From positions 43,154,001 to 43,218,000 of the forward strand of contig NC_086097.1 of assembly GCF_963921235.1 (NCBI RefSeq): DNA of 64,000 nucleotides, in the 5' to 3' direction. The position numbers and the translations under genes were made by a program. Shown here piece after piece: positions 1 through 63,031 of the stretch. Below the pieces are notes generated by a model. The model was not told the origin of the DNA, searched no databases, and saw nothing but the letters and a program-made list of their open reading frames with translations. This stretch comes from Mobula hypostoma (Eukaryota). The first letter of the stretch is position 1; each line of letters starts with the position of its first letter.

Positions 1-2100
1 ATGATGGAGCTAGAGATGTAGCTGCCAACTTGGACTGACTCAGGTTGTTCCATTAAGAAGTCCAAGATCCAGTTACAAGAGGGGCATTGAGTCCCAACAA
101 GGACATTTACCTACTAACCTCTGAGGGATGATTGTGTTAAAGCCAAGCTGAAGTTGAAAGTTGGTGGGACAGGATAGAGTGGAGAGCCAAGGCTGTGGTA
201 TCATTAGAGCAGTGGTTTGAATGGAAGGCAAACTGGAAAGGGTCCAATGTAGCTGGAAGGTGGCATTTCTACGATCCATTAGCAGCTGTTGAAAGCACTT
301 CATGATCATTGAAGTCAGTGCCATTGGATGGTAATTGATTAGGCCATTTACCATTGGTCTCTTGGGCATCAGAAAGATGGTGGCTGCCTTGAAGCCTGCA
401 GGATCAATGGACTGTTTCAGAGGTGTTAAAGATGTCTGTCAAGACCTTTCTTAGCTGTAGCTCTGTCAGCATCCAACCAGGTATGTTGTCTGGCCCCGCA
501 ATTTTGCTTGGGTACACCCTGGCTAGGATCCTCCTCCTCTTGGCTGCAGCCAGAGAGGGTGCCTGAGGGAGAGGGAGAGGACGCTTTCCTCAATGTCACA
601 TCATTCAATGCATCAATCAAATCGTGCATAGAAGACATTCAATCTATCAGAAAGGGAGGTGTTGCTGTCAATACATAGGGTGGCCACAAACACGAGGAAA
701 TCTGTAGCTGCTGGAATTTCAAGCAACACACATAAAAATTGCTGGTGAACACAGCAGGCCAGGCAGCATCTCTAGGAAGAGGTACAGTCGACATTTCGGG
801 CCAAGACCCTTCGTCAGGACTAACTGAAAGAAGAGCTAGTAAGAGATCTGAAAGTGGGAGGGGGAGGGGGAGATCCGAAATGATAGGAGAAGACAGGAGG
901 GGGAGGGATGGAGCCAAGAGCTGGACAGTTGATTGGCAAAAGGGATCTGAGAGGATCATGGGACAGGAGAATGGACTTGTCATCTGTTAAGGTTTGAATA
1001 CCCTGCCACATGTGCTACATGTCCCTCTGTCACAAAAGTGTTTGTGAATTTTCTGTGCATAGTCATACTTTGCCTTCCTGTTGGCATGGGAGAGCACGGC
1101 TCTTGCTGACTTTGGAGATGTCCAGTCCCCCAGTCTGAAGTCAGTGTCCCTAACCGTAAGCAGGGCACTCTGCAGTCATCCACGGTTTCTGGTTTGCCCT
1201 GGCAGTGCAGTGTTTAACCACGGTAAAATCCTCAATACATTTTCCTATGTAGCCAGTCACTGATCCCACATATTCATTGTTGATGTGATGATCATAAATA
1301 GCTACCTCCTTGAATATGATCCAGTCTGAGCTTTCAAAGCACTCCTGCAATGCTGAGGTGGCACCTTCTGGCCAGGTCCTGATCCCCCTCTAAACTGGTC
1401 CTACTTATTTAACCAAGGATTAGCAATATGGATATGTGATCTGAGTATCTGACAGCCTTTTAGGCTCCATTAACACTGATTTAAACCAGGTTTAATATAT
1501 TGCCATCTCTGGTCACAAAGTTGACATGTTGGTAGAACTTTGGCAGGACTGTTTTCAAGTTAGCATGATTGAAGTCACCAGCAACAACGAAGACACCATC
1601 TGGGTGAGTGGCTTCGATGTTGCAGATGGCACTGTAGAACTCCTGCAATGCTCCCCCAGCACTAGCACAGGGAGGGACGTAGACAGCAATAATCACAATT
1701 TCAGTGAACTCCCTTGGTAAATAGAAGGGTATGCACTTCACTATGAAAAAAACTCTATCTGGAGTGAGCAGTGGGCTGTTACTACTGATGTATTCATACT
1801 CCAGTTCTTACTGATGTGGGCACAAAAGCTGTGACCTTCTCCAGCAGTCTTGCCAGAGGTTGCAAAACTTCTGTTCACCCAAAAGGAGATTAGGCCTTCT
1901 AGGTGGATGGCCAAGTCCAGAGTGGTGCCCTGAAATCACATTTCTGTCAGGACAAGTGTACAACAATTTTAATTCCCATTGGCTCGGACAGAGATGAATG
2001 TAATCCAGTTTATTTTCCAGCAATCAGACGTAAGCAAGTAAAATTGATGGGAGCATAGGCCTGCAGGGCTCCGCTTTCAGACTTGCTTTAACACCAGGTG
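1..2100 (-). mobile_element. Degraded Rex1/Babar-type LINE (APE endonuclease plus RT fragments), interrupted by a Penelope-like 3' end at about 686-975
   Basis: Minus-strand ORF 1481-1741 reads CIPFYLPREF...IAVYVPP...VAGDFNHANLKTVLPKFYQHV, an APE domain typical of this clade. RT-like fragments (YHPMALTSMIMKCF) at 73-369. Stops and frameshifts present. Confidence 0.7.
686..975 (-). mobile_element. Penelope-like element 3'/pseudo-LTR fragment with hammerhead-like motif
   Basis: Reverse complement matches the 3' parts of the copies at 3262-4010 and 45671-46343. Carries AGTC-CTGACGA-AGGG..CCC-GAAA-TGTC-GACT at 786-821 (-). Confidence 0.75.
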
Positions 2101-2599
2101 CACTTCCCATGCTTTGATATTCAATCGAACCTCTTCCCCGAGTAACTAGTAGACTGCGGCGCTGAGCAAGAGACTGCTCCCTGCATTAGACAGTAATCTC
2201 ACAACACCTTCATTATTCCACTTGCCAACATGATAGACTTCCAGACTGTGTTCCTAACATTCAGCAGTGTTTTTCCATTATAGAAAAGACAAACAGGACA
2301 AGAAATTTCACCGTTAGAGCCAGAGTGGCTGCTGTATCCATGCGTGCTGCCATTTTTATTTGGTATTGGGCATTAATGATAAACCTAACATTTAGTGAAC
2401 ATCCCGAGATGCCCTTATATTTAGTTGCTTAGTATGCTAGAGGATCTGGTGTTGCAAATGAGTCAGATGGATAAGGATGACATGAGTGACTGCAGATGCT
2501 AACAATCAGGAGCAACACACAAAAAGCTGTAGGAACTCAGCAGGTCAAGCAGCATCTATGGAGGAAAATGAACAGCTGACATCTCAGAACAAAACTCAT

Positions 2600-4180
2600 T
2601 AGGAGACCACAGTCAGTAAGGATCAGAAATAACATCGCCTCCTCACTGATAATCAACACTTGCTCATCTCAAAGATGAATGCTTAGCCCACTACTCTATC
2701 CTCTCTACACCCAGGATTGTGTGGCTAGGCATATCTGAAATAGCATATATAAATTTGCTGATGATATGAATATTGTTGGCAGAATTTCAGATAGTGATGA
2801 GGGGGCATACAAGATTGAGATTAGTTAGTTAAGTGGTGTCGCAACAACAACCTTGCACTCAACATCAGTAAGATCAAGGAACTGATTGTGGACTTCAGGA
2901 AAGGGAAGTTTCCTGGAACCCTTCAGGAAAGGGAACACACATCAGTCCTCATCGAAGGATCAACAGTGGAAAGGGTGAGCTGTTTCAAGTGCCTAGGTGT
3001 CAACATCTCTGGAGATCTATCCTGGGCCCAACATATTGATGCAATTACAAGGCACGACACCAAAGACTTCAGCAAATTTCTACAGATGTACCATTGAGAG
3101 CTTTCTAAGTGTATTACCATCTGGTATGGAGGGGCCACGGCACAAGATCGGAAAAACCTGTAGGAAGCTGCAAACTCAGCAGCTCCACCATGGGCACTAG
3201 CCTCCCCAGCATCTTCAAAAAGGCAGCATCCATCATTACAGACCCCCATCATCCAGGACATTCACCATTCAGGGCCCCAAACAGTCCTTCCAGGTGAGGC
3301 ATCACTTCACCTGTGAGTCGACTGGGGTGATATACTGCGTCCGGTGCTCCCGATGTGGCCTTTTATATATTGGTGAGACCCGACGCAGACTGGGAGACCG
3401 CTTTGCTGAACATCTACGCTCTGTCCGCCAGAGAAAGCAGGATCTCCCAGTGGCCACACATTTTAATTCCACATCCCATTCCCATTCTGACATGTCTATC
3501 CATGGCCTCCTCTACTGTAAAGATGAAGCCACACTCAGGTTGGAGGAACAACACCTTATATTCCGTCTGGGTAGCCTCCAACCTGATGGCATGAACATTG
3601 ACTTCTCTAACTTCCGCTAGGCCCCACCTCCCCCTCGTACCCCAGCTGTTACTCATTTTTATGCACACATTCTTTCTCTCACTCTCCTTTTTCTCCCTCT
3701 GTCCCTCTGAATATACCTCTTGCCCATCCTCTGGGTCACCCCCCCCGTCTTTCTTCCCGGACCTCCTGTCCCATGATCCTCTCGTATCCCCTTTTACCTA
3801 TCACCTGTCCAGCTCTCGGCTCTATCCCTCCCCCTCCTGTCTTCTCCTATCATTTTGCTTCTCCCCCTCCCCCTCCAGCTTTCAAATCCCTTACTCACTC
3901 TTCCTTCAGTTGGTCCTGACGAAGGGTCTCGGCCTGAAACGTCGACTGCGCCTCTTCCTATAGATGCTGCCTGGCCTGCTGCGTTCACCAGCAACTTTGA
4001 TGTGTGTTGCAACGTTTTAGGAACAGCTCCTTTCCTTCTACCATTAGGTTTCTGAATGGACAACATATGTTGCCTATTTTTTTCTTAGTGAAATTTATAG
4101 TTTTTTAAAAATGTATTGCACTGTACTGCTGCTGCAAAATAACAAATTTTACGACATATGCCAGTGATATTAAATCTGAT
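2600..4180 (+). mobile_element. Degraded Rex1/Babar-type LINE 3' part (RT C-terminus and tail), interrupted by a Penelope copy at about 3262-4010
   Basis: KFADD-coding sequence near 2750; GSTVERVSCFKCLGVNISGDLSW peptide (ORF 2888-3097); CTGATT-type tail near 4176. Confidence 0.65.
3262..4010 (+). mobile_element. Penelope-like retroelement 3' part: GIY-YIG endonuclease, pyrimidine-rich tract and hammerhead-like motif
   Basis: ORF 3294-3620 reads FTCESTGVIYCVRCSRCGLLYIGETRRRLGDRFAEH...RLGSLQPDGMN, a Penelope GIY-YIG domain. CTGACGA...GAAACGTC at 3916-3943. Confidence 0.9.
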
Positions 4181-7660: not shown

Positions 7661-8469
7661 GTGGGATCTTTTGGTTAGTGCAATTGAAAAATAATTGTGT
7701 TTTTTAAGTAAAACTATTGTTTCCTCTGCTTTACTGTAATGGAACCACTACAACATCAATCAATTAAAACCCAAAACTAGCTAATTAAGATAATTTTGGT
7801 TCCCCAATTTAATGAAGGATTTATTGTTACTGTCAGCAGTTCAGAGAAGGTTCACAAGGATTATCCTGTAACTGGAGACATTGGCCTTATGAAGAAAGAC
7901 TGATCAGTTGGTCTACTCTTGTTGACATTTAAAGAGAGATGTGATCAATTGACATATTCTTGGGGATTTAGACAAGGCAAATATGTCCTCAAATGTCCAG
8001 AAACAGCGAGTACAATCTCAGTGTAAGGGTGTGCTGATCTAAGACTGAGATGAGGAAGAACTACTTCTCGATGGATTTTGAACTTTTGGAATCACTTGCT
8101 CCATAAAACTGGAATCTGAATTCTTGACTGTATTTGAGCAGTGAGGAAGGTTAGGTGGAAAGTGGAAAGTGGATTTGTGGAATGTTGGCCCAGCTTCGAA
8201 GCAGTTGACGTTTTGGGCAAGCCGCATCAGCAGAACTCCTGAAGTCCTGCTGAAGGGTCTCAGCTGGAAACATCAACTGTACTCTTTTTTTCTATAGATG
8301 CTGCCTGGCCTGCTGAGTTCATCTAGCATTTTGTGTGTTGCCATTCTGTAAAACCATTGGCTTATCTATGTATTAAGCCAATGGCTGTCATTGGTGTATT
8401 TATTTTCCTTATCAAAAATGTCACTTTTGCATTTCAAAATTGAGCTTACTTGGCATTAGTTTTGGTTGT

Positions 8470-11189: not shown

Positions 11190-14100
11190 CTCCATAAATA
11201 AATATGAGGTACTCAATGCCATACAAGGCTGAAAGGTGGGTAAATTCCCTGGAATGGATGGGATTTATTCCAGGCTGTTATGGGATGCAAGAGAAGGGAT
11301 TGTTCGGTCTATGGCTAAGATTTTTAAATGAGATGCACTATAACTGGAGCACAGAAAATGTGATTCCTTTTCAAGAAAGACAGCAGGGCACAACCTGTGA
11401 GCCTAGCGTTAGAGATAATAAATGTATTGTAAAATATTTCAAGGGAGAGGATAAATTTCCATTGGAAAGGCAGGGATTAATCAGAGACAGCCAACATGGC
11501 TTTGTCAAAGGTAGGATCATAACTGACCAATTTGTTTAAATTTTTTGAAGAGGTAATAAATTCTATCAATGAGGGCAGGGCAGTATGCGTAATTTACATG
11601 GGTGATAGAAAAGCCTTGAAGGGTGACTGGTTTAAAAGAGCTAGTGGGATTGAAGGCAAGTTGGCAAATTAGATCCAATATTAGCTTGGCAGTAGCAGAT
11701 AGGATGATGGTAGAAGGTCATTTTTGGGAATGGATTCCCTTTGACTTGCTGTATCACACAAGGATTGGTGCTGGGACCCTTGGTGTTTGCAATACAGGTT
11801 TCCCCCGCCATCCGAAGGTAGAGCGTTCCTATGAAACGGTTTGTAAGCGGAAATGTCGTAAAGCGAAGAAGCAATTACCATTTAGTTATATGGGAAAATT
11901 TTGTGAGCATTCGCAGACCCAAAAGTAACCTACCAAATCATGCCAAATAACACATAAAACCTAAAATAACAGTAACATATAGTAAAAGCAGGAACGATAT
12001 GATAAATACACAGCCTATATAAAGTAGAAATACTTTTCAACAATCATTACTGCACTGTTCTCTGTAGCGAAAATCTCACGCAAGCGCCGTCGGCAGAATA
12101 TCTCACGCAAGTGCTGTTGGCAAAAACACGGCGCAAGTGCTCTCCAGTAACCTTTAAGCTATTAAGCTGCCAAATCATACCAAATAACACGTAAAAATAC
12201 ACAGCCTATATAAAGTAGAAATAATGTATGTACAGCATAGTATCATTTACCGGAATCGGGACAGTGCCGAGCACACTGATGATGGTGTGTTAGGCTGAGT
12301 CATCGCAGGTTGGGGTGGTGCAGTGGCCCCCACCCTCCAGGCCACCAACCGATACCGATCCGTGAAGCATGCAAGAATGCAGTAGTAGCCAGGATGCACT
12401 CAGCACATCTTTAAGAAAAAAGCCAAAATAAACATACTAATTAATTAGGTGCCGCCCAGCTCGTAAATAATTAGCATGTTTATTTTGGCTTTTTTCTTAA
12501 AGATGTGCTGTGTGCCTCCCGGCTACCGCTGCATTCTCCGCGAATCGGTATCTGTCCATGGCCTGGGGGTTGGGGTGGTGGGACACTGGGGTGTCATCTC
12601 ATCGTCGTCTGTTTCCATTAGAGCAGGCAGCTCATCTTCTCCTATGACTGCCTGCCTCGATGTCGAAGGTCGAGGTTCGTCGTTTGCTGTGGCTGATGTG
12701 GAAGGCTTGCTTGACTGCAGAGCCTCGCGCATTTTTCTGTCACACAGTTCTTTGTAAGGACGCAAACCATCTTGCAAATATCCCCTAAACCTATGTACCT
12801 TTTCAAAATTAAAGTTGTACTTTATCATTGCAGCGAAAATCTCACGCAGTTGCTTCATGTTCAGTTCGCCACTGCATTCGGTTTCAATTGTTATCCTTTT
12901 TTCTTCCAATTGCATCAGCTCTTCATCTGTCAGTTCTCGGTCATGGAATGCCAAAACATCTTCAACATCATCTTCGTCAGCTTCCACAAGCCAAACTCAC
13001 GTTGTCCTTACTTCGTTCACCACAATCAAAATGCTTAATTATGTCTAGTTTTACGCTGTGTAACACCCTTACGAGCTCTTTTAGGCTTTTCTGATACCAT
13101 AGAACTCATCTTGCAAACGACTGCTCACAGGCACGTGTTTAAGCAACGCCAGCGAGAATGCCGTTCTGAATCCGGGGGGGGGCGGCTGCTCGGGGTGTGC
13201 GCTGCCTTTTATCGCGCGCTGCTTTTTTTTTGTAACAGTGAAAACACCTTCTGAAAGCGAAAACAGGGTACTAATGTAGGTCTTTCGTAACAGTGAGGTT
13301 TCGTAAAGCGAACGTTCGAAAAGCGGGGGACACCTGTATACGTAAATGATTTGGATTGGATCAGTAAGTTTATGGATGACACAAGATTTAGCAGAGTTGT
13401 TGATAGTATGCAAGAGTTAGGCTCTCGAGAGATACCTGTGTGTTTGTGAAATGGGCTGGAAAAATTGCAAATGGAAATGAGTGAAATGAGAGGTGATGCA
13501 ATTTGGGAATATAAGTGAAGCTATGACATAAACCATGGGTCTTGGGAGGTATTCAGTGACAGGGGGACCTTGGAGTACAAATGCATAAGTCCTTGAAGGA
13601 GGTTAGGAAGGCATACGGGATACAAGTCCTTAAGAGGTAAGGAGGTTATGTTCCAACTTTATAAAAGTTCAGTTAGACTTCAACTGGAGTCACCAATGTG
13701 TAGTTCTAATCACCAAAGTGTAGGAAGGATATAATAGTGCTGGAGGGAGTGTGATGGGGATTCATCAAGATGTTATCTGGGATCAAGTAGTTCAGTTGTA
13801 AGGGGAGACTGAAGAAGCTAGGTCTGTTCTCCATGGAGTGGAGTAGGTTGAGAGGACATGAGACTAAAATTCAGAAGTATAGATGGGGCAGACTGCAGAA
13901 AACTTTTCCCCATATCAGAGCTAGATAAGATGAGAAGTTTGAGGTTTGGGGTAAAGGGAAGGAGATTTAGAAGGGAATTTATTTCACCCCAAGAGTGGTA
14001 AGTATCTGGAAGTCATTGCCTAAAAGTGGTTGAAGCTAAGTCATCAACAACATTTAAGAAATATTTAGATGAGCATGTTTCAGTTAGGTATAAAGGGGCA

Positions 14101-21334: not shown

Positions 21335-23630
21335 GGAGAAACAACCTGTTTTGTGGCTTATAGAGCGAAGATACTTGACAGAACCCCAATATGTGTCAGG
21401 TCTCATCTGGAAGAACTGATGTGGGCCCTGAATGGTGGTGAGGGATGAGGTGTAGGGGCAGGTGCAGCACTTGGCATGGCTGCAGGGATAAGCACCAGGA
21501 TGGAGATAAGTTGGGAGGAACAAGTGGGCAAGGGAATCAGATAGAAAGTGATCCCCACAGAAAGGGTGAGGAGGAAGGTAACGATCTGCTTACTGGTGGG
21601 CATGGCTGAGAATGGTGTGCTGGATACAGAGGCCTGTGGGATGAAAGTTGAGGACAAGGGGAACCCATCTTTGTTATGACAGCGGGAGGATGAAGTAAAT
21701 GTAGATGTCTGGGAAATGGAGAAGATGTGAGTAAAGGTAGCATTGATGGTGGGGGAAGGGAAAACCACCATTCCTGAGAACAGATGCGGAGATGGAGAAA
21801 CTGAGAAAAGGGAATAGTATTTTTTACAAGTGACAGGTTGGGAGGAGGTATAGTCAAGATAACTGAGGGTCAATAGGTTTGTAAAAGATGCCAGTGGATA
21901 GCCCATCTCCAGAGATGAGGGAGATCGAGAAAGGAGAGGGAAGTGTCAGAAGCGGACCAGGTAAGTTTGAGCGCAGGGTGGAAGTTGCAGGCAAAGTTGC
22001 TGAAGTTGACAAGCTCAGTGTGGGTGCAGGAAGCAATACCAAGAGTTATGGGTATTCCCAGTGTAGGTCTGGAATATTGTCTGTTCCATGTAGCTGACAA
22101 AGTCAGGCATGGCTGGGGCCCATGGCTACTGTTTTGATTTAAAGAAAGTGGGAAGCCGGAAGAGAAATTGAAGGTAAGAACCAGTTTTGCCAGATGGAGG
22201 GGAACTAGTTAGGTGTGTTGGGTATAAGAAGCAGAGAGCTTTAAGGCCTTCCTGATGAGGGATGGAAGTATGTAGGGGCTGAGTACAATCGGCCCTCCTT
22301 ATCCGTGAGTTCCGCAGGCGCAAATTCAGCCAACCGCGAATCGAGAAGACCCGGAAGTGCTCTTCCAGCACTTGCTGTTCGAGCATGTGCAGACTTTTTT
22401 TTCTTGTCATTATTCCCTAAACAATGCAGTATAACAACTATTTTACATAGCATTTACATTGTATTAGGTATTATAAGTAATCTAAAGATGATGTAAAGTA
22501 TATGGGAGGATGTGCGTGGATTATCGTAGATCGGGATCGGGGGGAAAAAAAAGTAAGTTCTCTTACTAAGTCGGAATAGGTACATTCGGTATTATTTAGC
22601 GTCAGTTAGTCAAACGTTTGCCTTAGTATATAGTATATATTTTACCTTTCTATGCATATAAAATACTTAAGAAACATATGTTTCAGTGCTGGGCTCGGGA
22701 ACAGAAGTTCCCGAGTTCGATCCAGTGACAGATCGTTCCCAAGTTCAATCCAGTGACAGACCACTCCTGAGCGCGCTGTCCATCCCTGCCGGGTTGATGT
22801 GGAGGATCAGAAACCCAAACCCCAATAATTAAACCACTGCGTTGTTGCATAATAATTGTAGCTTTAATCGAGCAGGGCCTTTCTCATTTTATTCTTTAAA
22901 ATTGTTCCGATCGTTGACTGAGTTTAGCCTAACACTTTTCCAATGACTGATGGCGTTTCACCTCTTTCTGATCGCTTTATTATTTCCACTTTATTTTAAA
23001 TCGTGATCGTGATTATTTTCCTGAACAGAAACACTGCAGATTCAGAGCTCCGCCGCCGGGTCCTAATGCCCAACGCACTGAGACAGGTGCGGGTCCGGGG
23101 TTCCGCTAGGTCCTAAGGTCCACCACATTGAGACAGGTTGAATAAGGGACTTGAGCATTCGCGTTTTTTGGTATCCGCGAGGGATCCTGGAACCAATCCC
23201 TCGCGGATAAGGAGGGCTAACTGTATCCCCAAAGTAAAAATAAGATAATCCATGCCGGGTTCTGGACGTGATAAAGAGCATGTGAAATATTGTAGCTATA
23301 CCTGTGAGTAGAAAGGCGCTGAACCAAGGGAGACAAAATGGAGTCGAGGTATGCAAACAGGAGTTCAGTGGGACAGGAGCAGGCCTAAACAATGGGCCTA
23401 TTGGGACAGATAGGTTTGTAAGATATAGAAACTAACTGCAGGGTACGGGAACTGAGGTTGGTGCCAGTGGATAGGAGATTTCCACAGTCAAGAGATTGGT
23501 GACTGTGCACAGGACAATGGCCTGGTGCTCCTCAGTGGTCCTGTACAAGAAGTAAGTAGAGGTGTCTGAGAGTTACCATTTGGCCTCTGTCTTATAGAGG
23601 TCAATCCACCAGACTACAACAGCAATACCA
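21335..23630 (-). mobile_element. Degraded Penelope-like element (RT and adjoining regions), split by a Tigger-like insertion
   Basis: Minus-strand peptides TSIPHQEGLKAL, NFHPALKLTW..SLSFLDL, IFYKP and IPFSQFLHLRICS are typical of Penelope RT. Confidence 0.75.
22286..23223. mobile_element. Non-autonomous Tigger-like DNA transposon
   Basis: TA flanks at 22284-85 and 23224-25. TIRs CAATCGGCCCTCCTTATCCG / CAGTTAGCCCTCCTTATCCG. Internal 28-bp tandem repeat near 22707-22762. Confidence 0.85.
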
Positions 23631-26640: not shown

Positions 26641-27209
26641 GCACATTATCACAACAGATTACATGACAGAAAGTAGAGGCATAAATTGTTTGGTGGTGAG
26701 GCTAGGGCCATATGCTGAGAGAATTCCACATTTCCCTCTGTGTGAAATTCCCCTTGAATGGTCTGGCTCTCATTTAAAATTATTTCCTCTTGTCCTAGAA
26801 TTGTGCACCAGAGCATGTAGTTTCTCTAATAGCTGAACATCGGCAGTTAATATCCTATTAATAACCAAGTTTTAAACTATAGGGTGATATAGCTATAGGT
26901 TAAACTATAGAATAGTGGTAGCTGTATTTTTTTTGTATACTTGCCCAGAGTCTTCCTATTTGGATATATTTTATAGGTAAAATTTGTCCCTTGTTGCTGT
27001 CCTATCATATAGCAGTAACCACTATAATATGATTGTTATGTTCTCAAAAATCTGGACAGGAAGAAGTGATAATACCTTTAATGTTATTATTATTGATTGA
27101 GATTACAGATTTGAGTTTTTTTAATTGCATTGTTCTCATTTAAATCATTTGACATCAATGCCATAAAGTAGGCTTCAGCCTAATATACTACTTTTTCATC
27201 TCTCTGTAG

Positions 27210-27328
27210 TTATATATGTTAAATCTGAGATCCAAAGACAGAATACTGCATTGGCAGAGAATAGAAAACTTCAAAGGAATGCGACCAACACCCAAAGATA
27301 AGCTTGGCTGCTGGGTGTACAAGAACAA
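27210..27328 (+). CDS. KLHDC2: KLHDC2 coding exon 4
   Basis: CTGTAG| LYMLNLRSKDRILHWQRIENFKGMRPTPKDKLGCWVYKN(K) |GTGAGT. Not in the ORF track; translated manually. Confidence 0.92.
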
Positions 27329-27429
27329 GTGAGTACATGATTAATCAACAGATAGAGATGATGAACAGTGTGAATTGGAGAAGTCCTAATAGTAATTATG
27401 CATATTCTAAACAAGTATAATAAAGTTTG

Positions 27430-27615
27430 CAAACAACAGGAATTCTGCAGATGCTGGAAATTCAAGCAACACTAATAAAAGTTGCTGGTGAATGCAGCAG
27501 GCCAGGCAGCATCTCTAGGAAGAGGTGCAGTCCTGACGAAGGGTCTTGGCCTGAAACGTCGACTGCACCTCTTCCTAGAGATGCTGCCTGGCCTGCTAGG
27601 TTCACCAGCAACTTT
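27430..27615 (+). mobile_element. Short inverted Penelope-derived insertion carrying a hammerhead-ribozyme core
   Basis: Flanked by a 14-bp direct repeat TATAATAAAGTTTG (27416-29 and 27616-29). 58-bp inverted arms surround CTGACGA...GAAACGTC. Confidence 0.8.
27533..27560 (+). ncRNA. Minimal type-I hammerhead ribozyme core (putative)
   Basis: CUGACGA, short helix II (AGG/CCU), GAAA, palindromic ACGU and GUC cleavage triplet, closed by helix I. Confidence 0.6.
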
Positions 27616-27628
27616 TATAATAAAGTTT

Positions 27629-28648
27629 GGCCACTTTATTAGGTACAGGAGTGGAACCCAGTGTGGTCAATTTAAATGCCAGCCCAGATCGAAGGTGAGA
27701 GCCGATTTTGCTCACTGCACAAAATCTTCACTCCTTTATCCAGGGTGTGGGGCCTTTCGCTGTTCTGTTGTTGGCTCAATTCAAACGCCCGCCCAGATAG
27801 ACTGAAAAGGGTGTCGGTTGGGACGAGAACCGACCTCACTTGCTCTCTGCGAAGGTCACCCCTCCCTCCATAGTGCCGAGGCTATGAAGACTGCCCCGGC
27901 TGCTGTGCTCTGTGCCCACTAATATGAACTGACTAGCAAGGCTTTGGGCCTACTCCGGGCTGCTCTGGGGTTCAGATCTGAGGGCTCAGTTTTGGTTGGG
28001 AATGCTGTTGTTGTTCGCTTCAATTGTTTGGATGATTTTTTTTTTCTTTCTCTTTCACATAGCCTTGGTCTTTTACTTTTATTTTTATTTTTTTTCTTTA
28101 ATTGGATTCTTTTGGGTTTCTTGCTTTGTGGCTACCTGTGAGCAAGCAAATCTCAAGGTTGTATAATTTATACATTCTTTGATGATAAATGAATCTTGAA
28201 TCTTCTGCTGCTGTAGCCCACTCATTTCAAGGTTCAATGCGTTGTGCATGCAGAGATGCTCTTCTGTGCACCACTGTTGCAACACGTAGTTATTTGAGTT
28301 ACTGTTGCCTTCCTGTCAGCTTGAACCAGTGACACGCTCTCATTAACAGTGTTTTCATCCACAGAACTGATACTGGATGTTTTTGTTTCTTGCTGCATTC
28401 TCTGTAAGCCCTAGAGACTGTTGTGTGTGAACATCCCAGGAGATCATTCTGGTACCAACAATAGTTCTGTGGTCAAAGTCACTTAGATCACATTTCTTCC
28501 CTGTTCAGATCAACCATCTGAATAAGGGCTGAACCTATTGATATGTCTGAATGCTTTTATGCACTGAGTTGCTGCCATAATTAGCTGATTAGATATTTGT
28601 ATTAATGAGCAGGTGTATAGATGTACCTAATAAAGTGGGCACCAAGTG
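27629..28648. mobile_element. Tc1-like non-autonomous DNA transposon containing a nested retro-derived insert at about 27670-28200
   Basis: GGCCACTTTATTAGGTAC ... GTACCTAATAAAGTGG..GTG|TA termini. Homologous to 34611-35100. The nested insert ends in ATAAATGAATCTTGAATCT. Confidence 0.7.
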
Positions 28649-34196: not shown

Positions 34197-34610
34197 GTAT
34201 GTAATTTATTTTGTATTTTACAAGTGATTTCCAACCCTTACTAAACTCTACACTCTCACAGTCAAGAATACTGATCAACTAACACTCCCACGCCGCCCTC
34301 AACCCCCACCCCAAAAAAAGCTGCTGTTGATGTTACAAAGCACTCCTCCTGAGGATTTGGGGGTGTTTTGGGCACTCTCAATAACTGCTTTGTCTGGGGC
34401 AGCTAGGGCATTAAGTAAATGTTTATGTATTTTTGCTACTAATGAAATTGTTCAATATTATGAAAATCTTGCCACCATCTGTAAACTATCCCTTTTCCTC
34501 CTCCCATGAGGAAATTGGTGTACTCGGAACTGGGAACTGCTATTTTACATGATAGTTAATTGCTGAATTAGTTACCACCACGTTTCCCCAGCTTCCTCAA
34601 CCTCAATATA

Positions 34611-35100
34611 CACTCAGTGGCCACTTTATTATGTACTTCCTGTGCCTAATGGCCACTGAATGTATGTTCATAGTCTTCTGTAGCCCTTACTTTTCAAGCT
34701 TCGAGCTGTGCATTCAGAGATGCTCTTCTGCACACCACTGTTGTAACACATGGTTACTTAAGTTACTAGTGTCTTCCTGTCAGCTTGAACCAGTCTGACC
34801 ATTCTCCTCTGATCTCTCTCAATAACAAGGTGCTTTTGCCCACAGAACTGCCACTCACTGGATGTTTTTGCTTTTCGCACCATTCTCTCTAAACTCTAGA
34901 GACTATGTGTGAAAATCCCAGGAGATCAGTAGTCTGGCACTAACAATCATTCTATGGTCAAAACCTTGTTATTTTTTTTTGGGTTTGAACGAAAATTAAA
35001 CCTCTTGACTTAACTTTTATGCTTTGAATTGCTGCCAGGATTGGCTGGTTAGATATCTGTATTAATGAGCATGTGTAACTAATAAAGTGGCCACAGAATG
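34611..35100. mobile_element. Tc1-like non-autonomous DNA transposon
   Basis: TA|CACTCAGTGGCCACTTTATT ... AATAAAGTGGCCACAGAATG TIRs. Same family as 27629-28648. Confidence 0.75.
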
Positions 35101-38084: not shown

Positions 38085-41000
38085 TCTCCAACAATAAGTA
38101 CTCCTGTTTGAGTACTGTTGGGGGAGACAGCCTATGTGGAGGAAGCAACAGTGCCCGTGCCTCTGGTATAGAAGCCCTGTGGCTCAGAAGGGTAGGGAAA
38201 GGAAGAGGATGGCAGCAGTGATGGGGGACTCTATAGTTGGGGGGGGGGTAGACAGGTGATTCTGTAGACGCAGGAAAGAAACGCGGATGGTAGTTTGCCT
38301 CCCAGGTGCCAGGGTCCAGGATGTTTCTGATCGTGTCCATGATATCTTGAAGTGGGAACAAGTACAGCCAGAGGTTGTGGTACATATTGGTACCAATGAC
38401 ATGGGTAGGAAAGGGGGAGAGGTCCTGAAAACAGACTATAGGGAGTTAGGAAGGAGGTTGAGAGCAGGACCTCAAAGGTAGTAATCTTGGGATTACTGCC
38501 TGTGCCACGTGACAGTGAGTATAGGAATAGAATGAGGTGGAGGATAAATGTGTGGCTGAGGAATTGGAGCAGGGGGCAGGGATTCAGATTTCTGGATCAT
38601 TGGGACCTCTTTTGGGGCAGGTGTGACCTGTACAAAAAGGACGGGTTGCACTTGAATCCGAGGGGGACCAATATACTGGTGGGGAGGTTTGCTAAGGGCA
38701 TTGGGGAGAGTTTAAACGAGAATTGCTGGGGGGTGAGAGCCGAACTGAAGAGATGGAGGAAGGAGCGGTTGGCTCACAAATAGAGAAAGCTTGGAGACAG
38801 TGCGAGAGGGAGGATAGGCAGGTGATAGAGAAGGTACGTCCTCAGACTGAAGGTTTGAGAGGTGTCTATTTTAATGCAAGGAGTATTATGAACAAAGCAG
38901 ATGAACTTAGAGCGTGGATCAGCACTTAGAGCTATGATGTTTTGGCCATTACAGAGATCTGGATGGTGCAGGGGCAGGAATGGCTACTTCAGGTGCCAGG
39001 CTTTAGATGTTTCAGAAAGGACAAGCAGGGAGGCAAGAGGTGGGGGTGTGGCCCTGCTGATCAGAGATGGTGTCACGGCTGCAGAAAAGGAGGAAGTCAT
39101 GGAGGGGTTGTCTACGGAATCTCTGTGGGTGGAAGTTAGGAATAGGAAGGGGTCAATAACTCTACTGGGTGTTTTTTTTATATAGACCACCCAATAGTAA
39201 CAGGGATATCGAGGAGCAGATAAAGAGACAGATTGTAATAATAAGAGTTGTTGTGGTGGGAGATTTTAATTTCCCAAATATTGATTGGCATCTCCCTAGA
39301 GTGAGGGGTTTAGATGGGGTGGAGTTTGTTAGATGTGTTCAGGAAGGTTTCTTGACACAATATGTAGATAAGCCTACAAGAGGAGAGGCTGTACTTGATG
39401 TGGTTTTGGGGAATGAACCTGGTCAGGTGTCAGATTTCTCAGTGGGAGAGCATTTTGGAGATGGTGATCACAATTCTATCTCCTTTACTATAACATTGGA
39501 GAAGGATAGGAACAGACAAGTTAGGGAAACGTTTAATTGGAGTAAGGGGAAATATGAGGCTATCAGGCAGAAACTTGGAAGCTTAGAAACATGGAATTAT
39601 GATGTAGTGGCCATTACAGAGACTTGGCTGGCACCAGGGCAGGAATGAATTCTCAATATTCCTGGATTTCAGTGCTTTAAAAGGGATAGAGAAGGGGGGA
39701 AAGGGGAGGAGGGGTGGCATTACTGGTCAGGGATACTATTACAGCTACAGAAAGGGTGGGTAATGTAGCAGGATCCTCTTTTGAGTCAGTATGGGTGGAA
39801 GTCAGGAACAGGAAGGGAGCAGTTACTCCATTGGGAGTATTCTATAGGCCCCCTGGTAGCAGCAGCAGATACCGAGGAGCAGATTGGGAGGCAGATTTTT
39901 GAAAGGTGCAAAAATAACAGGGTTGTTACCATGGGTGACTTTAACTTCCCTGATATTGATTGGCACCTGATGAGTTCCAAGGGTTTAGATGCGGCAGAGT
40001 TTAAGTGTATCCAGGACAGATTCCTGTCATAGTACATTGACAGGCCGACTAGGGGGAATGCCATACTGGATCTAGTATTAGGTAACGAACCGGGTCAGGT
40101 CACAGATCTCTCAGTGGGTGAGCATCTGGGGGACAGTGACCACTGCTCCCTGGCCTTCAGCATTATCATGCAAAAGGATAGAATCAGAGAGGACAGGAAA
40201 ATTTTTAATTGGGGAAGGGCAAATTATGAGGCTATAAGGCTAGAACTTACGGGTGTGAATTGGGATGATGTTTTTGCAGGGAAATGTATTATGGACATGT
40301 GGTCAATGTTTACAGATCTCCTGCAGGATGTTAGGGATAAATTTGTCCCGGTGAGGAAGATAAAGAATGGTAGGGTGAAGGAACCATGGGTGACAAGTGA
40401 GGTGGAAAATCTAGTCAGGTGGAAGAAGGCAGCATACATGAGGTTTAGGAAGCAAGGATCAGATGGGTCTATTGAGGAATATAGAGTAGCAAGAAAGGAG
40501 CTTAAGAAGGGGCTGAGAAGAGCAAGAAGGGGGCATGAGAAGGCCTTGGCAAGTAGGGTAAAGGAAAACCCCAAGCATTCTTCAATTGTGAAGAACAAAA
40601 GGATGACAGGAGTGAAGGTAGGACCGACTAGAGATAAAGGTGGGAAGATGTGCCTGGAGGCTATGGAAGTGAGCGAGGTCCTCATTGAATACTTCTCTTC
40701 GGTATTCACCAATGAGAGGGAACTTGATGGTGAGGACAATATTAGTGAGGTTGATGTTCTGGAGCATGCTGATATTAAGGGAGAGGAGGTGTTGGAGTTG
40801 TTAAAATACATTAGGACGGATAAGTCCCCGGGGCCTGATGGAATATTCCCCAGGCTGCTCCACGAGGCGAGGGAAGAGATTGCTGAGCCTCTGGCTAGGA
40901 TCTTTATGTCCTCATTGTCCATGGAAATGGTACCGGAGGATTGGAGGGAGGCGAATGTTGTCCCTTTGTTCAAAAAAGGTAGTAGGGATAGTCTGGGTAA

Positions 41001-44000
41001 TTATAGATCAGTGAGCCTTGCGTCTGTGGTGGGAAAGCTGTTGGAAAAGATTCTTAGAGATAGGATCTCTGGGCATTTAGAGAATCATGGTCTGATCAGG
41101 GACAGTCAGCATGGCTTTGTGAAGGGCAGATCGTGTCTAACAAGCCTAATAGTGTTCTTTGATGAGGTGACCAGGCATATAGATGAGGGTAGTGTGATGA
41201 ATGTGATCTACATGGATTTTAGTAAGGCATTTGACAAGGTTCCACATAGTAGGCTTATTCAGAAAGTCAGAAGGCATGGGATCCAGGGAAGTTTGGCCAG
41301 GTGGATTCAGAATTGGCTTGCCTGCAGAAGGCAGAGGGTCGTGGTGGAGGGAGTACATTCGGATTGGAGCGTTGTGACTAGTGGCGTCCCACAAGGATCG
41401 GTTCTGGGACCTCCACTTTTCGTGATTTTTATTAATGACCTGGATGTGGGGGTAAAAGGGTGGGTTGGCAAATTTGCAGACGACACAAAGGTTGGTGGTG
41501 GTGTGGATAGTGTAGAGGATTGTCAAAGATTGCAGAGAGACATTGATAGGATGCAGAAGTGGGCTGAGAAGTGGCAGATGGAGTTCAACCCGGAGAAGTG
41601 TGAGGTGGTACACTTTGGAAGGACAAACTCCAAGGCAGAGTACAAAGTAAATGGCAGGATACTTGGTAGTGTGGAGGAGCAGAGGGATCTGTGGGTACAT
41701 GTCCACAGATCCCTGAAAGTTGCCTCACAGGTAGATAGGGTAGTTAAGAAAGCTTATGGGGTGTTAGCTTTCATAAGTCGAGGGATAGAGTTTAAGAGTC
41801 GCGAGGTAATGATGCAGCTCTATAAAACTCTGGTTAGGCCACACTTGGAGAACTGTGTCCAGTTTTAGTCGCCTCGCTATAGGAAGGATGTGGAAGCATT
41901 GGAAAGGGTACAGAGGAGATTTACCAGGATGCTGCCTGGTTTAGAGAGTATGGATTATGATCAGAGATTAAGGGAGCTAGGGCTTTACTCTTTGGAGAGA
42001 AGGAGGATGAGAGGAGACATGATAGAGGTGTACAAGATATTAAGAGGAATAGATGGAGTGGATAGCCAGTGCCTCTTCCCCAGAGCACCACTGCTCAATA
42101 CAAGAGGACATGGCTTTAAGGTAAGGGGTGAGAAGTTCAAAGGGGATATTAGAGGAAGGTTTTTTACTCAGAGAGTGGTTGGTGCGTGGAATGCACTGCC
42201 TGAGTCAGTGGTGGAGGCAGATACACTAGTGAAATTTAAGAGACTACTAGACAGGTATATGGAGGAATTTAAGGTAGAGTGTTATATGGGAGGCAGGGTT
42301 TGAGGGTCGGCACATTGTGGGCTGAAGGGCGTGTACTGTGCTGTACTATTCTGTGTTCTTTAAATTGGAAACAGATGTTCTCAGGGAAACGTACAGAAAA
42401 AATGTGGCAAATGTTCAGGGGATATTTGCGTGGGGTTCTGCATAGGTACTTTCCAATGAGATAGGGAAAGGATGGTAGGGTACAGTAACCGTGCTGTACA
42501 AAGGCTGTGGTAAATCTTGTCAAGAAGGAAAGAAGAGCTTATGAAAGGTTCAAAAACTAGATAATAATAGAGATCTGGAAGAGTTGTAAGGCTAGCAGGA
42601 AGGAGCTTAAGAGTGAAATTAGGAGAGCCAGAAAATGCCTTGAGAAGGCCTTGGCAAGCAGGATATTTGGAACCGGAGGAGATAGCAGAGGTACCTAGTG
42701 AGTACTTTGCTTCAGTATTCACTACAGAAAAGGATCTTGGTGATTATAGGGATGACTTGCAGTGGACTGAAAAACTTGAGCATGTCGCTATTAAGGAAGA
42801 GGATATGCAGGAGCTTTTGGAAAGCATCAAGTTGGATAAGTCACCGGGACCAGATGGGATGTACCTTAGGCTACTGTGGGAAGCGAGGGCAGAGATTGCT
42901 GAGCCTCTGGCAATGATCTTTGCATCACCAATGAAGACTGGAGATGTTCCGGAGGATTGGAGGGTTGCGGATGTTCAAGAAAGGGAGTAGAGATAGCCCA
43001 GGAAATTATAGGTCAGTGAGTCTTACTTCAGTGGTTGGTAAGTTGATGGAGAAGATCCTGAGAGGCAGGATATGAACATTTGGAGAGGCATAATATGATT
43101 AGGAATAGTCAGCATGGCTTTGTCAAAGGCAGGTCATGCCTTACGAGCCTGATTGAATTTTTTTTAGGATGTGACTAAGCACATTGATGAAGGTAGAGCC
43201 ATAGATGTAGTGTATATGGATTTCAGCAAGGCATTTGATAAGGTACCTCATGCAAGGCTTAGTGAGAAAGTAAGGAGGCATGGGATCCAAGGGGACATTG
43301 CTTTGTGGATCCAGAACTGGCTTGCCCACAGAAGGCAAAGAGTGTTTGTAGATGGGTCATATTCTGCATGGAGGTCAGTGACCAATGGTGTGCCTTAGGG
43401 ATCTGGGACCCCCTACTCTTCGTAATTTTTATAAATGACCTGAATGAGGAAGTGGAGGGATGGGTTAGTAAATTTGCTGATGACACAAAGGTTGGGTGTT
43501 TTGTAGATAGTGTGGAGGGCTGTCAGAGGTTACAGTGGGACATTGATAGGATGCAAAACTGAGCTGAGAAGTGGCAGATGGAGTTCAACCCAGATAAGTG
43601 TGAGGTGGTTCATTTTGGTAGGTCAAATACGATGGCAGAATATAGTATTAATGTTAAGACTCTTGGCAGTGTGAAGGATCAGAGGGATCTTGGGGTCCGA
43701 GTCCATAGGGCGCTCAAAGCTGCTATGCAGGTTGACTCTGTGGTTAGGAAGGTGCATTGGCCTTCATCAACCATGAGATTGAGTTCAAGAGCTGAGAGGT
43801 AATGTTGCAGCTCTATAGGACCCTGGTCAGACCCCACCTGGAGTTCTGTACTCAATTCTGGTCGCCTCACTACAGGAAGGATGTGGAAACCATAGAAAGG
43901 GTGCAGAGGAGATTTACAAGGATGTTGCCTGGATTGGGGAGCATGCCTTATGAGAATAGGTTGAGTGAACTTGGCCTTTTCTCCTTGGAGCGACAGGGGA

Positions 44001-45670: not shown

Positions 45671-46343
45671 GATACCCGATGCAGACTGGGAGACCGCTTT
45701 GCTGAACATCTACGCTCTGTCCGCCAGAGAAAGCAGGATCTCCCACTGGCCACACATTTTAATTCCACATCCCATTCCCATTCTGACATGTCTATCCATG
45801 GCCTCCTCTACTGTAAAGATGAAGCCACACTCAGGTTGGAGGAACAACACCTTATATTCCGTCTGGGTAGCCTCCAACCTGACGGTATGAACATCGACTT
45901 CTCTAATTTCCGCTAAGGCCCCACCTCCCCCTCGTACCCCATCTGTTACTTATTTTTATGCACACATTCTTTCTCTCACTCTCCTTTTTCTCCCTCTGTC
46001 CTTCTGAATATACCTCTTGCCCATCCTCTGGGTCCCCCCCGCCTTGTCTTTCTTCCCGGTCCTCCTGTCCCATGATCCTCTCATATCCCCTTTTGCCTAT
46101 CACCTGTCCAGCTCTTGGCTCTATCCCTCCCCCTCCTGTCTTCTCCTATCATTTTGGATCTCCCCCCTCCCCCTCCAACTTTCAAATCCCTTACTCACTC
46201 TTCCTTCAGTTAGGCCTGACGAAGGGTCTCGGCCTGAAACGTCGACTGCACCTCTTCCTAGAGATGCTGCCTGGCCTGCTGTGTTCACCAGCAACTTTAA
46301 TGTGTGTTGCTTGAATTTCCAGCATCTGCAGAATTCCTGTTGT
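45671..46343 (+). mobile_element. Penelope-like element 3' part (partial GIY-YIG, pseudo-LTR, hammerhead motif)
   Basis: Closely matches 3378-4010. CTGACGA..GAAACGTC at 46216-46243. Possible 7-bp TSD CAGCATC (45664-70 and 46344-50). Confidence 0.88.
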
Positions 46344-46663: not shown

Positions 46664-47529
46664 GTAAGTTCATTGGCAGTTTCTTTAAATGATACCCTCA
46701 TTTTGCCACTTTGTACCCTTGTCTCCCAGGAAAGAAAATTAAGTTTTACTTTAACTGGAAGCTAGCATAGATGTAATTCATCATAAACATTTGTGCAACT
46801 TCATGGTAATGAGTTTCAGTTTTAGAGACCAGTTTGGATCTAAAGATAAAAAGCTTTCCTCATAATTTGATGTTAAAACACCAACAGGTTTGTCGAGACA
46901 AGCATTTTAAGTATATTACAGTAGTTTACCATCCAGTCAGTGATGGTGTAATAAAAAAATTGATTTTGTTATTTTCAAATTAAAATGTTTCATTTATAAA
47001 TATGTTCTGGAAAACTGGCATGCAAGCCAGAATCTTAACCAAAATGACGTGCAAAGTTGTGTCAAGCAAGTTTGTATATTTACCCCAGCACTTTTCTCAG
47101 TCTTTGCTTCAGTGCTGCCCCTCACTGCTAACAGGTTTCATTCTGAAGGAATCTACAGGATAAATGGGAAATTGGCATTCTGGTAGTAAGGTGATCCCAA
47201 CTTCAATCTTTTGGTTGCAATACACAGATGATGCTTGGAAAAATATACAAAATGCTGGAGGAACTCAACAGATTGGGCAGCATCTATGGAAATGAGTAAA
47301 CAGTTGACGTTTTGGGCCAAGGACCTTCAGGAGGACTGAGAGGGAAGGGGGGAAAGGGGGAGAAGCCAGAATTGAACAATGGGGGGGGGGTGGGGAGAGG
47401 CTGGTGGGTTATGCCTGTATACTTTGAGGCTAAGCTGTAAGTCTTCATTGATTGATTCACGAAGGCAAACAAGATATTGAATTCTAAGACTTTGTTTTTA
47501 CCTTCTAAATCATCATTTTTTTTTTGCAG

Positions 47530-57118: not shown

Positions 57119-57557
57119 CTAAATGATAAACATTTATGAAACAATTATTTCAATTTTTGCAGGTAACTTTACAAATCTGATATGCAATTTGTTCTGACCT
57201 TTGCATTGTTCGCACAGCTATTTTACACGTGATTTTGGAAGTATAACATTGACAGCAAAAACATAATATTTCTGATTGCTGTTGGAGGAATGTGAACATA
57301 AGGATGTCAAAGGAATAAATAATAGGATTATTTATTCCTTTGACATCCTGATTATATCAGAAAGGCAAAAAGCAAGACAAGACCATTCATCCCATCAACA
57401 CAGCTCTAGGCACCATATCACTATCTACTTTCCACTCTCTAATGAGAAGAAACTTCCACTTGATAAAAATCTAACAGTGTGTTAATAACCCTCAAGTATC
57501 CTCAGTGGATGTTAATGCAATGTCCTTTTATGAATTCTGATTCTATTGACTTCTTTA

Positions 57558-59353
57558 GGGATGCAAACAGAAACAGGTGAATTGATTATGGGGAGCAAGG
57601 ACATGGCAGACCAATTGAATAATTACTTTGGTTCTGTCTTCACTAAGGAGGACATAAATAATCTTCCAGAAATAGTAAGGGACAGAGGGTCCAGTGAGAT
57701 GGAGGAACTGAGTGAAATACATGTTAGTAGGGAAGTGGTGTTAGGTAAATTGAAGGGATTGAAGGCAGATAAATCCCCAGGGCCAGATGGTCTGCATCCC
57801 AGAGTGCTTAAGGAAGTGGCCCAAGAAATAGTGGATGCATTAGTGATAATTTTTCAAAACTCGTTAGATTCTGGACTAGTTCCTGAGGATTGGAGGGTGG
57901 CTAATGTAACCCCACTTTTTAAAAAAGGAGGGAGAGAGAAACCGGGGAATTATAGGCCGGTTAGCCTAACGTCGGTGGTGGGGAAACTGCTGGAGTCAGT
58001 TATCAAGGATGTGATAACAGCACATTTGGAAAGCGGTGAAATGATCGGACAAAGTCAGCATGGATTTGTGAAAGGAAAATCATGTCTGACGAATCTCATA
58101 GAATTTTTTGAGGATGTAACTAGTAGAGTGGATAGGGGAGAACCAGTGGATGTGGTATATTTGGATTTTCAAAAGGCTTTTGACAAGGTCCCACACAGGA
58201 GATTAGTGTGCAAACTTAAAGCACATGGTATTGGGGGTAAGGTATTGGTGTGGGTGGAGAATTGGTTAGCAGACAGGAAGCAAAGAGTGGGAATAAACGG
58301 GACCTTTTCAGAATGGCAGGCGGTGACTAGTGGGGTACCGCAAGGCTCAGTGCTGGGACCCCAGTTGTTTACAATATATATTAATGACTTGGATGAGGGA
58401 ATTAAATGCAGCATCTCCAAGTTTGCGGATGACACGAAGCTGGGTGGCAGTGTTAGCAGTGAGGAGGATGCTAAGAGGATGCAGGGTGACTTGGATAGGT
58501 TGGGTGAGTGGGCAAACTCATGGCAGATGCAATTTAATGTGGATAAATGTGAAGTTATCCACTTTGGTGGCAAAAATAGGAAAACAGATTATTATCTGAA
58601 TGGTGGCCGATTAGGAAAAGGGGAGGTGCAACGAGACCTGGGTGTCATTATACACCAGTCATTGAAAGTGGGCATGCAGGTACAGCAGGCGGTGAAAAAG
58701 GCGAACGGTATGCTGGCATTTATAGCGAGAGGATTCGAGTACAGGAGCAGGGAGGTACTACTGCAGTTGTACAAGGCCTTGGTGAGACCACACCTGGAGT
58801 ATTGTGTGCAGTTTTGGTCCCCTAATCTGAGGAAAGACATCCTTGCCATAGAGGGAGTACAAAGAAGGTTCACCAGATTGATTCCTGGGATGGCAGGTCT
58901 TTCATATGAAGAAAGACTGGATGAACTGGGCTTGTACTCGTTGGAATTTAGAAGATTGAGGGGGGATCTGATTGAAACGTATAAGATCCTAAAGGGATTG
59001 GACAGGCTAGATGCGGGAAGATTGTTCCCGATGTTGGGGAGGTCTAGAACGAGGGGTCACAGTTTGAGGATAGAGGGGAAGCCTTTTAGGACCGAGGTTA
59101 GGAAAAACTTCTTCACACAGAGAGTGGTGAATCTGTGGAATTCTCTGCCACAGCAAACTGTTGAGGCCAGTTCATTAGCTATGTTTAAAAGGAAGTTAGA
59201 TATGGCCCTTGTGGCTACAGGGGTCACGGGGTATGGAGGGAAGGCTGGGTTCTGAGTTGGATGATCAGCCATGATCATAATAAATGGCGGTGCAGGCTCG
59301 AAGGGCCGAATGGCCTACTCCTGCACCTATTTTCTATGTTTCTATGTTTCTAT
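57558..59353 (+). mobile_element. Young 5'-truncated CR1 family C with uninterrupted ORF2 RT region (ORF to 59255)
   Basis: 569-aa open frame with YLDFQKAFDKVPH, GVPQGSVLGP and KFADD; (TTCTATGT)n tail. Lies in a NEMF intron, antisense to NEMF. Confidence 0.95.
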
Positions 59354-59978
59354 TTACATTTTGAAATATAGGCCAGCATTCAAAGCTCTAAGCAGCATCA
59401 ACAGAACTTTTGTTTATGTAGTAGCTTTGATCTTAATGAAAGTTCCACCAGTGTTTCACAGAAGTGTGATCAATTAAAAACATTCTAAATCAGTTGAAGA
59501 GACATCTAAGCAAATAGCTAAAAGCTTTGGACGAAAGAGTCCTGCCAAAAGGTTTTAGCCCGAAATGTTGACTGTACATTTTTCCATCGATATTGCCTGG
59601 CTTGCTGAATTCCTCCAGCACTTTGTGTGTGTTGCTTGGATTTCCAGTATCTGCAGATTTTCTCTTGTTTGGGACAAAGGAGTTGTTTGTTTAAGAAGCC
59701 ATAAAGGAGGAAAGTTAATTTTCTATCTTAATAGTTGCACTCTCTCAGACCCACAAACACTTCCCTAATCTATAACCATCATGAACCCCAATGATCATAG
59801 CCCTGACCACATCCAAAACTCATCCTAATCCTCATCCCCCAGCTCAGTTATGATGACCCTCATTCCTTACTTTCCCAGTGATCACAAATTGAACCCTCAC
59901 ATCCTGAGTGATCTTTATTTGAATTCTGCCCCCATTTCCACAGCTTCCAGTTGCTCCCCAATACTGAACCAACCCAAC

Positions 59979-62550: not shown

Positions 62551-62671
62551 CTGGTTCCAAGTGATAATAAAATAATATAAATATTAATAGAATACACTTA
62601 TTACCAAGTGAATGTACAAGCTACCAAATAAAACTACTTGGAACCAAAACTCAGAGACGACTGTGCTTTAC

Positions 62672-62869
62672 CTCTTGTTGATCTTCTGCCGGAGTCCCCT
62701 CCAGAGTCATTTCTGCCATATGATGTGTCACAGTCTCTAGAGCATGTGCTTTGCTTTGGATATTACCTGCTTCTTTCAAAGTTTGCTTTTTCTCCTGTTT
62801 TTTAGGCAGTTCTTTTGTTTTCCCTTTTTTCCCTTTCCTAGCCTTTTCCTCTTTACTTGGTCCTGCTGA
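62672..62869 (-). CDS. NEMF: NEMF coding exon
   Basis: ATTCAG| SAGPSKEEKARKGKKGK...EDQQE |GTAAAG. Confidence 0.9.
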
Positions 62870-62953
62870 CTGAATCCACATAACATAAATTAAAATTTGA
62901 GCATTAAATTTAAAAACAATCTGCTTTTTCCATTGATGCAAATTTATCCTTAC

Positions 62954-63031
62954 CCCAAGTAATTTCATCATTAATTCACGATCCTCCTCATCCTGATCTT
63001 TATATTTTTCTTTAATTTTCTTCAGTTTAGC
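62954..63031 (-). CDS. NEMF: NEMF coding exon
   Basis: ATTAAG| AKLKKIKEKYKDQDEEDRELMMKLLG |GTAAGG, a hallmark NEMF/Rqc2 motif. Confidence 0.95.

Follow-up and report, generated by a model that had tools for sequence, protein, structure and literature searches.

A probably neutral head-to-head Penelope-like insertion with a hammerhead core in KLHDC2 intron 4

The window analysed in this study, a stretch of 64,000 nucleotides, carries in intron 4 of KLHDC2 a 186-bp insertion that is very probably a neutral, minimal head-to-head scar of a Neptune-type Penelope-like retroelement. Judged from their letters, both arms derive from the 3' end of one such element. With +1 defined as the first base past the hammerhead cut site, the insertion starts with an inverted copy that runs from +103 to +1 and continues with a direct one covering about -31 to +55/58; the two overlap by AGTC. 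Head-to-head Penelope insertions with a one-sided tail have already been described, and the KLHDC2 copy adds another example, an unremarkable product of a process that operates often. The ribozyme letters in its loop are most likely trapped in an inactive predicted fold.

Anatomy of the insertion and its parent element

The features of the window on which the analysis is based are the following.

27210..27329, + strand: KLHDC2 coding exon 4 (PDB match; tblastn of P0002)
27416..27429, + strand: left copy of the target-site duplication (TSD), 14 bp; the family median is 14 bp
27430..27532, - strand: left copy, inverted; covers +1 to +103 of the element 3' end and forms the long, tailed side
27529..27532, + strand: junction microhomology AGTC, 4 nt, helix I 5' strand, common to both copies
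27533..27560, + strand: minimal type-I hammerhead core (the loop), with the anatomy given in the available text of PMC4209133
27561..27615, + strand: right copy, covering +1 to about +55/58 of the element 3' end and forming the short side; 3 more bases are shared with the TSD
27616..27629, + strand: right copy of the TSD
3263..4010, + strand: parent element, a copy that is 5'-truncated and located outside KLHDC2, with a GIY-YIG fragment and then the same core at 3916
46216..46343, + strand: KLHDC2 intron 10, an ordinary copy of this element end with its core at 46216-46243 and a long tail

The insertion lies on the sense strand of KLHDC2, beginning 100 nt after exon 4. The TSD copies at 27416-27429 and 27616-27629 are identical at 14/14 positions, and the arms at 27475-27532 and 27561-27618 are complementary at 55 of 58 positions. 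The original prediction of a 186-bp insertion with a 14-bp TSD about 100 nt past coding exon 4, with 58-bp arms around the loop letters of 27533-27560, was thus borne out, and the proposed joining of the two copies via the 4-nt helix I complementarity AGTC/GACT was likewise supported. An inversion had also been proposed to lengthen helix I to about 58 bp; the extension stands, but the right arm's final 3 bp coincide with the start of the TSD, which leaves 55 bp of the pairing as element-derived. The left copy, 103 nt long, exceeds its paired part by 45 nt. The hairpin fold had a z-score of -16.4, and none of 200 shuffled sequences was equally stable.

The predicted Penelope origin was supported by a full-length copy, L111, together with the GIY-YIG fragment within the window. 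L111 contains a single ORF of 1,043 codons (260-3391) with matches to RVT_1 (E 2.2e-4) and GIY-YIG (E 1e-3) that are both below the Pfam cut-offs; the window fragment scored 24.5 bits, above the cut-off of 22.6. Moreover, positions 1-304 of L111 match 3516-3819 at 98% as direct repeats, with cores at 175 and 3690, and a CX4CX2C linker motif was read in its translation. An ORF with reverse transcriptase and C-terminal GIY-YIG, hammerhead-bearing pLTRs on both sides and a linker, the hallmarks of EN+ Penelope-like elements, were therefore all found in L111. Its segments 171-260 and 203-306 match 27529-27618 and 27532-27429, respectively. According to the text available from PMC8557442, a CX2-5CxxC zinc-finger-like linker between RT and EN defines the type, and Nematis has a linker motif too; the Neptune-type assignment made here follows this motif rather than an RT phylogeny. 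The GIY-YIG fragment in front of the core at 3916 fixes the sense strand of the element, and the hammerhead is on that strand. When the fragment was compared with the genome, 150/150 scored matches were 100% identical and three lay within open frames of 1,043 codons, which suggests that the family has been recently active. The idea that copies begin at -680, with an intron from there, was rejected because the reference copy is itself truncated at that point. Older, diverged Penelope-like relatives (64-77% identity) are present in the window at 21402-23624 (- strand), 8240-8341, 59538-59671 and 47276-47338.

Abundance, end pattern and origin of the inverted form

A genome-wide copy count had been named beforehand as a check. 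Because counting was by exact match, the figures of 52,215 intact hammerhead cores and 2,534 head-to-head junctions at most 30 nt upstream of a core are lower bounds, as are all junction counts. The junction at helix I seen in KLHDC2 is shared by 100 copies with the same flanking pattern, or 121 with a shorter pattern, so that the palindromic form is not unique. Junctions 18 and 12 nt further along were found in 222 and 205 copies, the latter count lumping two types, and other neighbouring classes in 65 and 27, for which the search patterns lay one base off the intended classes; reversed-pattern controls gave 0. Since the 222- and 205-copy junctions are commoner, the cut site is neither a hot spot nor favoured, and the reading of this junction as a mark of ribozyme cleavage of the template was rejected. 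On contig C1, the 30 intact cores that come first represent 28 independent events, of which 9 have an inverted partner upstream, in one case with about 420 unmatched bases between the partners. Two local clusters were also seen: a tandem array containing a head-to-head unit, with four copies of one junction at 2,572 bp spacing (G000:C5:220460984-220468751), and three identical unusual junctions inside 2.3 Mb, probably segmental duplicates (G000:C1:27999895, 28958656, 30295883).

Fifty of the 121 junction loci were analysed, the KLHDC2 locus included; L003 and L011, both long-left, are outside the 50. End patterns and TSDs were scored at 45 loci, after exclusion of L034, L042, L045, L096 and L101 (one arm missing, very short or deleted), arm concordance at 37/50, and folds and CpG counts at 40/50 each. 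One long and one short end were found in 44/45 two-armed copies, with the long end on the left in 20, on the right in 24 and on both sides in none. The remaining locus, L049, was scored short/short; by eye, one of its ends looks long but internally deleted. Short ends fall mostly at +55 to +76 and long ends at about +100 and beyond, and all nine unbiased C1 pairs likewise have one of each. TSDs of at least 11 bp were present in 42/45 copies (median 14) vs 6/2,000 mismatched flank pairs. Furthermore, the arms agree within copies: 17/148 diagnostic cells differed, shuffles giving 65.9 +/- 5.4 with 0/5,000 as low. The junction copies span at least three subfamilies. With their own TSDs, several subfamilies and CpGs that have decayed in core and arms alike, they look, on sequence, to have been made one by one. 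Arm agreement could instead reflect later gene conversion or the activity of one subfamily at a time. At L057 (= L012), for which no clear TSD was scored, the arms differ at 4/4 diagnostic sites, and it may have had two templates or have recombined later.

Other ends deserve mention. At L096, which lacks the right arm, the direct copy stops no more than two bases from the ribozyme cut site. Many 5' ends fall a short way upstream of the core, between -27 and -37, including those of 6/30 focal copies (L061, L070, L076, L077, L083 and L084); they adjoin a pyrimidine run ending in CAG, and the TCAGTT word beside them is presumably initiator-like. Such ends could mark a transcription start, a splice acceptor, an RT stop or general short truncation.

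Inverted pLTRs of EN+ Penelope-like elements are described in the available text of PMC3846280, PMC8557442 and PMC2377424 as head-to-head, with a TSD and, on one side, a tail of 30-40 bp. The KLHDC2 insertion also has an inverted copy, a one-end tail and a TSD, and resembles those pLTRs further in that a 5'-truncated inverted copy stands beside a direct copy with a palindrome at the junction. It differs in that both copies are reduced to about 100 nt, that the junction uses helix I and that the TSD is 14 bp vs 8-10 bp in the rotifer examples of the same sources. In the portions available, PMC3846280, PMC8557442 and PMC11167929 call the origin of inverted pLTRs and one-sided tails open.

The simplest account of the insertion is that both target strands were primed at the element's two internal starts and the products joined by microhomology. 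The GIY-YIG nuclease of the element would cut both target strands about 14 bp apart, and each target 3' end would prime reverse transcription on element RNA, one at a distal start (about +103) and the other at a proximal start (+55 to +70). Both cDNAs would stop early and join via AGTC/GACT, the 4-nt complementarity that forms helix I in the RNA, and fill-in would leave a palindrome between TSDs whose loop is the unduplicated hammerhead core. The order of priming is inferred from the anatomy and the end pattern. That a single complex primes the two strands at two staggered sites, in most cases with one RNA or two sibling RNAs as template, is on balance the account we favour. A precedent is provided by the PAc Poseidon element of Anolis, for which the text available from PMC11167929 reports in vitro that both target strands are cut and extended and that there are two internal starts. 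The resemblance includes the spacing of those RT starts, which lie a tail's length apart downstream of the hammerhead. The ray element differs in being Neptune-type, and the two ends of one insertion are never both at the distal start, whereas no difference in start site between strands is reported in PMC11167929, which in the same text does not treat inverted insertions. The enzyme behaviour carried over from the Anolis element to the ray element is thus an analogy that may hold. No paper stating staggered two-strand priming was found in a search of the main texts available, and such a statement may be in print.

A palindrome could instead come from fold-back self-priming of one cDNA, or from an antisense template, rather than from two primings, as argued for rotifer Penelopes in the text available from PMC3846280. 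Fold-back would account for arm agreement and for the 24 copies with the loop on the long arm, but a strand can copy only sequence already within it. In the KLHDC2 copy, and in 20/45 copies overall, the +103 arm ends at the cut site and the core-bearing arm ends near +58, so that neither arm could template the other and fold-back cannot yield this layout. With the disagreement of the arms of L057 added, we regard this origin as quite improbable; the one-long/one-short architecture excludes simple fold-back priming and points to both-strand priming. It is still harder to believe that the palindrome is a SINE- or MITE-like non-autonomous unit spread from one palindromic master. That candidate was suggested by a search with the 186 bp, in which 40/40 scored matches span nearly all of it at 88-100%, and one junction is common to 121 copies. 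It was rejected, since the search is biased toward the layout of the query. One master would give fixed ends and a fixed layout, but the long end lies left in 20 copies and right in 24. Moreover, several subfamilies, shared with ordinary copies, yield the form, the arms change together and the junction is one among many, with others more frequent. A single palindromic master could not account for both layouts and for several subfamilies. The end pattern makes the origin of inverted Penelope repeats testable and should be useful to Penelope specialists. From the one-long/one-short rule, the arm agreement and the layouts incompatible with fold-back, staggered priming of both strands follows as a clear-cut prediction that the in vitro system already in use can examine.

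The hammerhead core: letters, predicted fold and possible cleavage

The core contains the letters CUGACGA, an extra A, helix II, GAAA, the palindromic ACGU and the cut triplet GUC; every part of a minimal type-I motif (CUGANGA, helix II, GAAA, NUH and palindromic helix III letters) was therefore found. With these letters intact on the sense strand, the predicted minimal type-I anatomy was upheld, as was the statement that no helix III forms in the monomer. The position numbers 9, 10.1 and 15.2-16.2 are those that we take to apply to the KLHDC2 core. Minimal type-I hammerheads as presented in the available text of PMC4209133 share with it the core boxes, the 4-bp native helix I, the place on the sense strand of the pLTR, the extra base between positions 9 and 10.1 and the palindromic 15.2-16.2. 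Unlike them, the KLHDC2 copy has helix I stretched to 55 bp via inversion, and helix II is short (4 bp) and G-U closed in its subfamily. Non-LTR retrozymes (10.64898/2026.07.22.740005, in its available text) are also non-coding, derived from Penelope pLTRs and provided with type-I hammerheads, but they are direct tandems with at least two hammerheads; the KLHDC2 insertion, an inverted pair with one core, is not one of them. Rfam hammerhead models gave no match at E <= 10 in the whole window or in 27500-27600, a weak test for a motif without helix III, as ordinary copies in the window were also missed.

RNA folding, a further check that had been named, indicated that the clamp fixes helix I and that the core is predicted closed. 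The pairing probability of helix I was 0.996 (below 0.05 in 26/30 ordinary copies), and GACG was predicted to pair with CGUC at 0.98-1.0. The open-core probability was 0.0015, about 100-fold above most ordinary copies (median near 1e-5), and the open core lay only about 4 kcal/mol above the misfold. Effects of Mg2+, tertiary contacts and proteins are outside nearest-neighbour energies, and ordinary copies scored even less open, so that the native ribozyme too would be rated inactive by the same model; the odds of activity are lowered by these values, not settled. The claim of a stable, pre-folded ribozyme thus held for helix I, whose pairing the clamp raises, and not for the core, which is predicted to be misfolded. 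In 40 clamped copies, CpG was lost 6 times in ACGT and 12 times at the cut site, vs 8 times in the left arm and 10 in the right. The loss from ACGT (6/40) is somewhat less than that from the arms (18/80), in loci selected by an intact 5' half of the core, and the numbers are too few to exclude weak constraint. With a misfolded core and no usable partner, the insertion would stand in KLHDC2 pre-mRNA as a 55-bp hairpin, and transcript cutting at a rate that matters is not expected.

The original prediction held that the clamp pre-folds the ribozyme, which with a partner would cut KLHDC2 pre-mRNA after 27560; in such a reading expression would be affected. The intact sense-strand letters, the helix I pairing and the comparatively open core speak for such cutting, as does a weak hint of the insertion in a related organism (see below). 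However, the topology of a double hammerhead implies that the strand following the cut is paired to the 5' strand of the partner. Helix I of the dimer would therefore form between molecules, and the clamp competes with it and opposes the active form. A hand-built active homodimer scored -225.3 vs -245.2 kcal/mol for two hairpins, with all 55 bp having to be exchanged; about half of this gap comes from small tail hairpins left out of the model, giving a net 10-20 kcal/mol uphill. In addition, a tertiary contact described as necessary in vivo in the available text of PMC4209133 requires a loop, which the long perfect helix I lacks; in that text single minimal hammerheads did not cleave and dimers cleaved weakly. 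In the portions available from PMC11167929, cleavage by the Anolis ribozyme depended on protein, and none of the RNA-seq reads stopped at its cut site. Cleavage at 27560 is consequently disfavoured, as a partner's helix I strand must displace the 55-bp clamp, and we judge it extremely unlikely in this model. The second core put forward as a partner is indeed present at 46216-46243 on the same transcript, but it is found downstream in intron 10, at a distance of 18.7 kb and six exons from the insertion, and its helix I 5' strand is AGGC instead of AGTC, so that its role as a natural partner is not supported. The hand-built form with this core as enzyme on 27560 scored -4.5 vs -165.8 kcal/mol, and if the pair reacted, the model would place the cut at 46243, not at 27560.

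That the 103-nt left arm serves as an antisense guide, the core then cutting sense RNA of the family in trans, for instance at 46243, appears very unlikely. Its 45-nt unpaired toehold would bind any sense copy and displace its own shorter right arm. The left arm matches 46244-46343 at 95%, and the complex scored -239.0 vs -165.8 kcal/mol for the separate RNAs. The active arrangement lay 3.6 kcal/mol above the misfold (-197.0 vs -200.6), and 20/45 copies are long-left with plentiful targets. Nevertheless, the misfold is still preferred in the model, the tertiary loop is absent, product release from a 96-bp duplex would probably be slow, splicing probably removes intron 4 before intron 10 has been transcribed, and constraint has no clear sign. 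If true, there would be dozens of self-made catalytic silencers vs >52,000 target sites, one of them from KLHDC2 intron 4. A role of the hairpin as double-stranded RNA, through ADAR editing or small RNAs against the family and not as a ribozyme, is unlikely but less strained, and is compatible with a neutral insertion. It is suggested by the 55-bp near-perfect stem within a transcribed intron and by antisense small RNAs of rotifer Penelope copies, as reported in the available text of PMC3846280, but the Rfam miRNA matches are all far under their gathering scores and reflect the stem only.

Host gene context and neighbouring features

The translation of 27210-27329 is a KLHDC2 segment (PDB match E 2.4e-10), and P0002, named Mobula KLHDC2 by its source, fully matches the exon, tblastn making it coding exon 4. 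The four public sequencing runs consist of contigs, a form of data in which cut ends, strand and level are not visible. From a run guessed to be RNA, a 6,807-nt contig aligns solely to 27208-27328 and by this restriction resembles a spliced exon. Among the contigs of the four runs, none crosses the whole insertion and no empty target site was seen. The contig of organism B enters the left arm by 25 bases at depth 2.8, where the bridging rule is 31 bases, and hints weakly that the insertion is also present in a related organism; that of organism C ends at 27414, before the insertion, and is uninformative on it. The family numbers tens of thousands and about 100 of its junctions resemble this one; the insertion is probably irrelevant to KLHDC2 regulation.

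Several other features of the window were recorded. The target site and the right flank of the insertion form a near-palindrome. The right flank starts with the end of a high-copy repeat (27628-27668), which we take to resemble a Tc1-type terminal repeat and of which a small inverted repeat lies at 34606-34667. An AT-rich inverted repeat at 12411-12498 gave miRNA-model scores below thresholds and is probably a MITE. An open frame at 62651-63091 (- strand) resembles part of a host gene exon, presumably NEMF-like. Finally, long RT-like frames of LINE type are found at 40033-41868 (611 codons), in KLHDC2 intron 10, and at 57534-59255 (573 codons), and both are presumably CR1-like.
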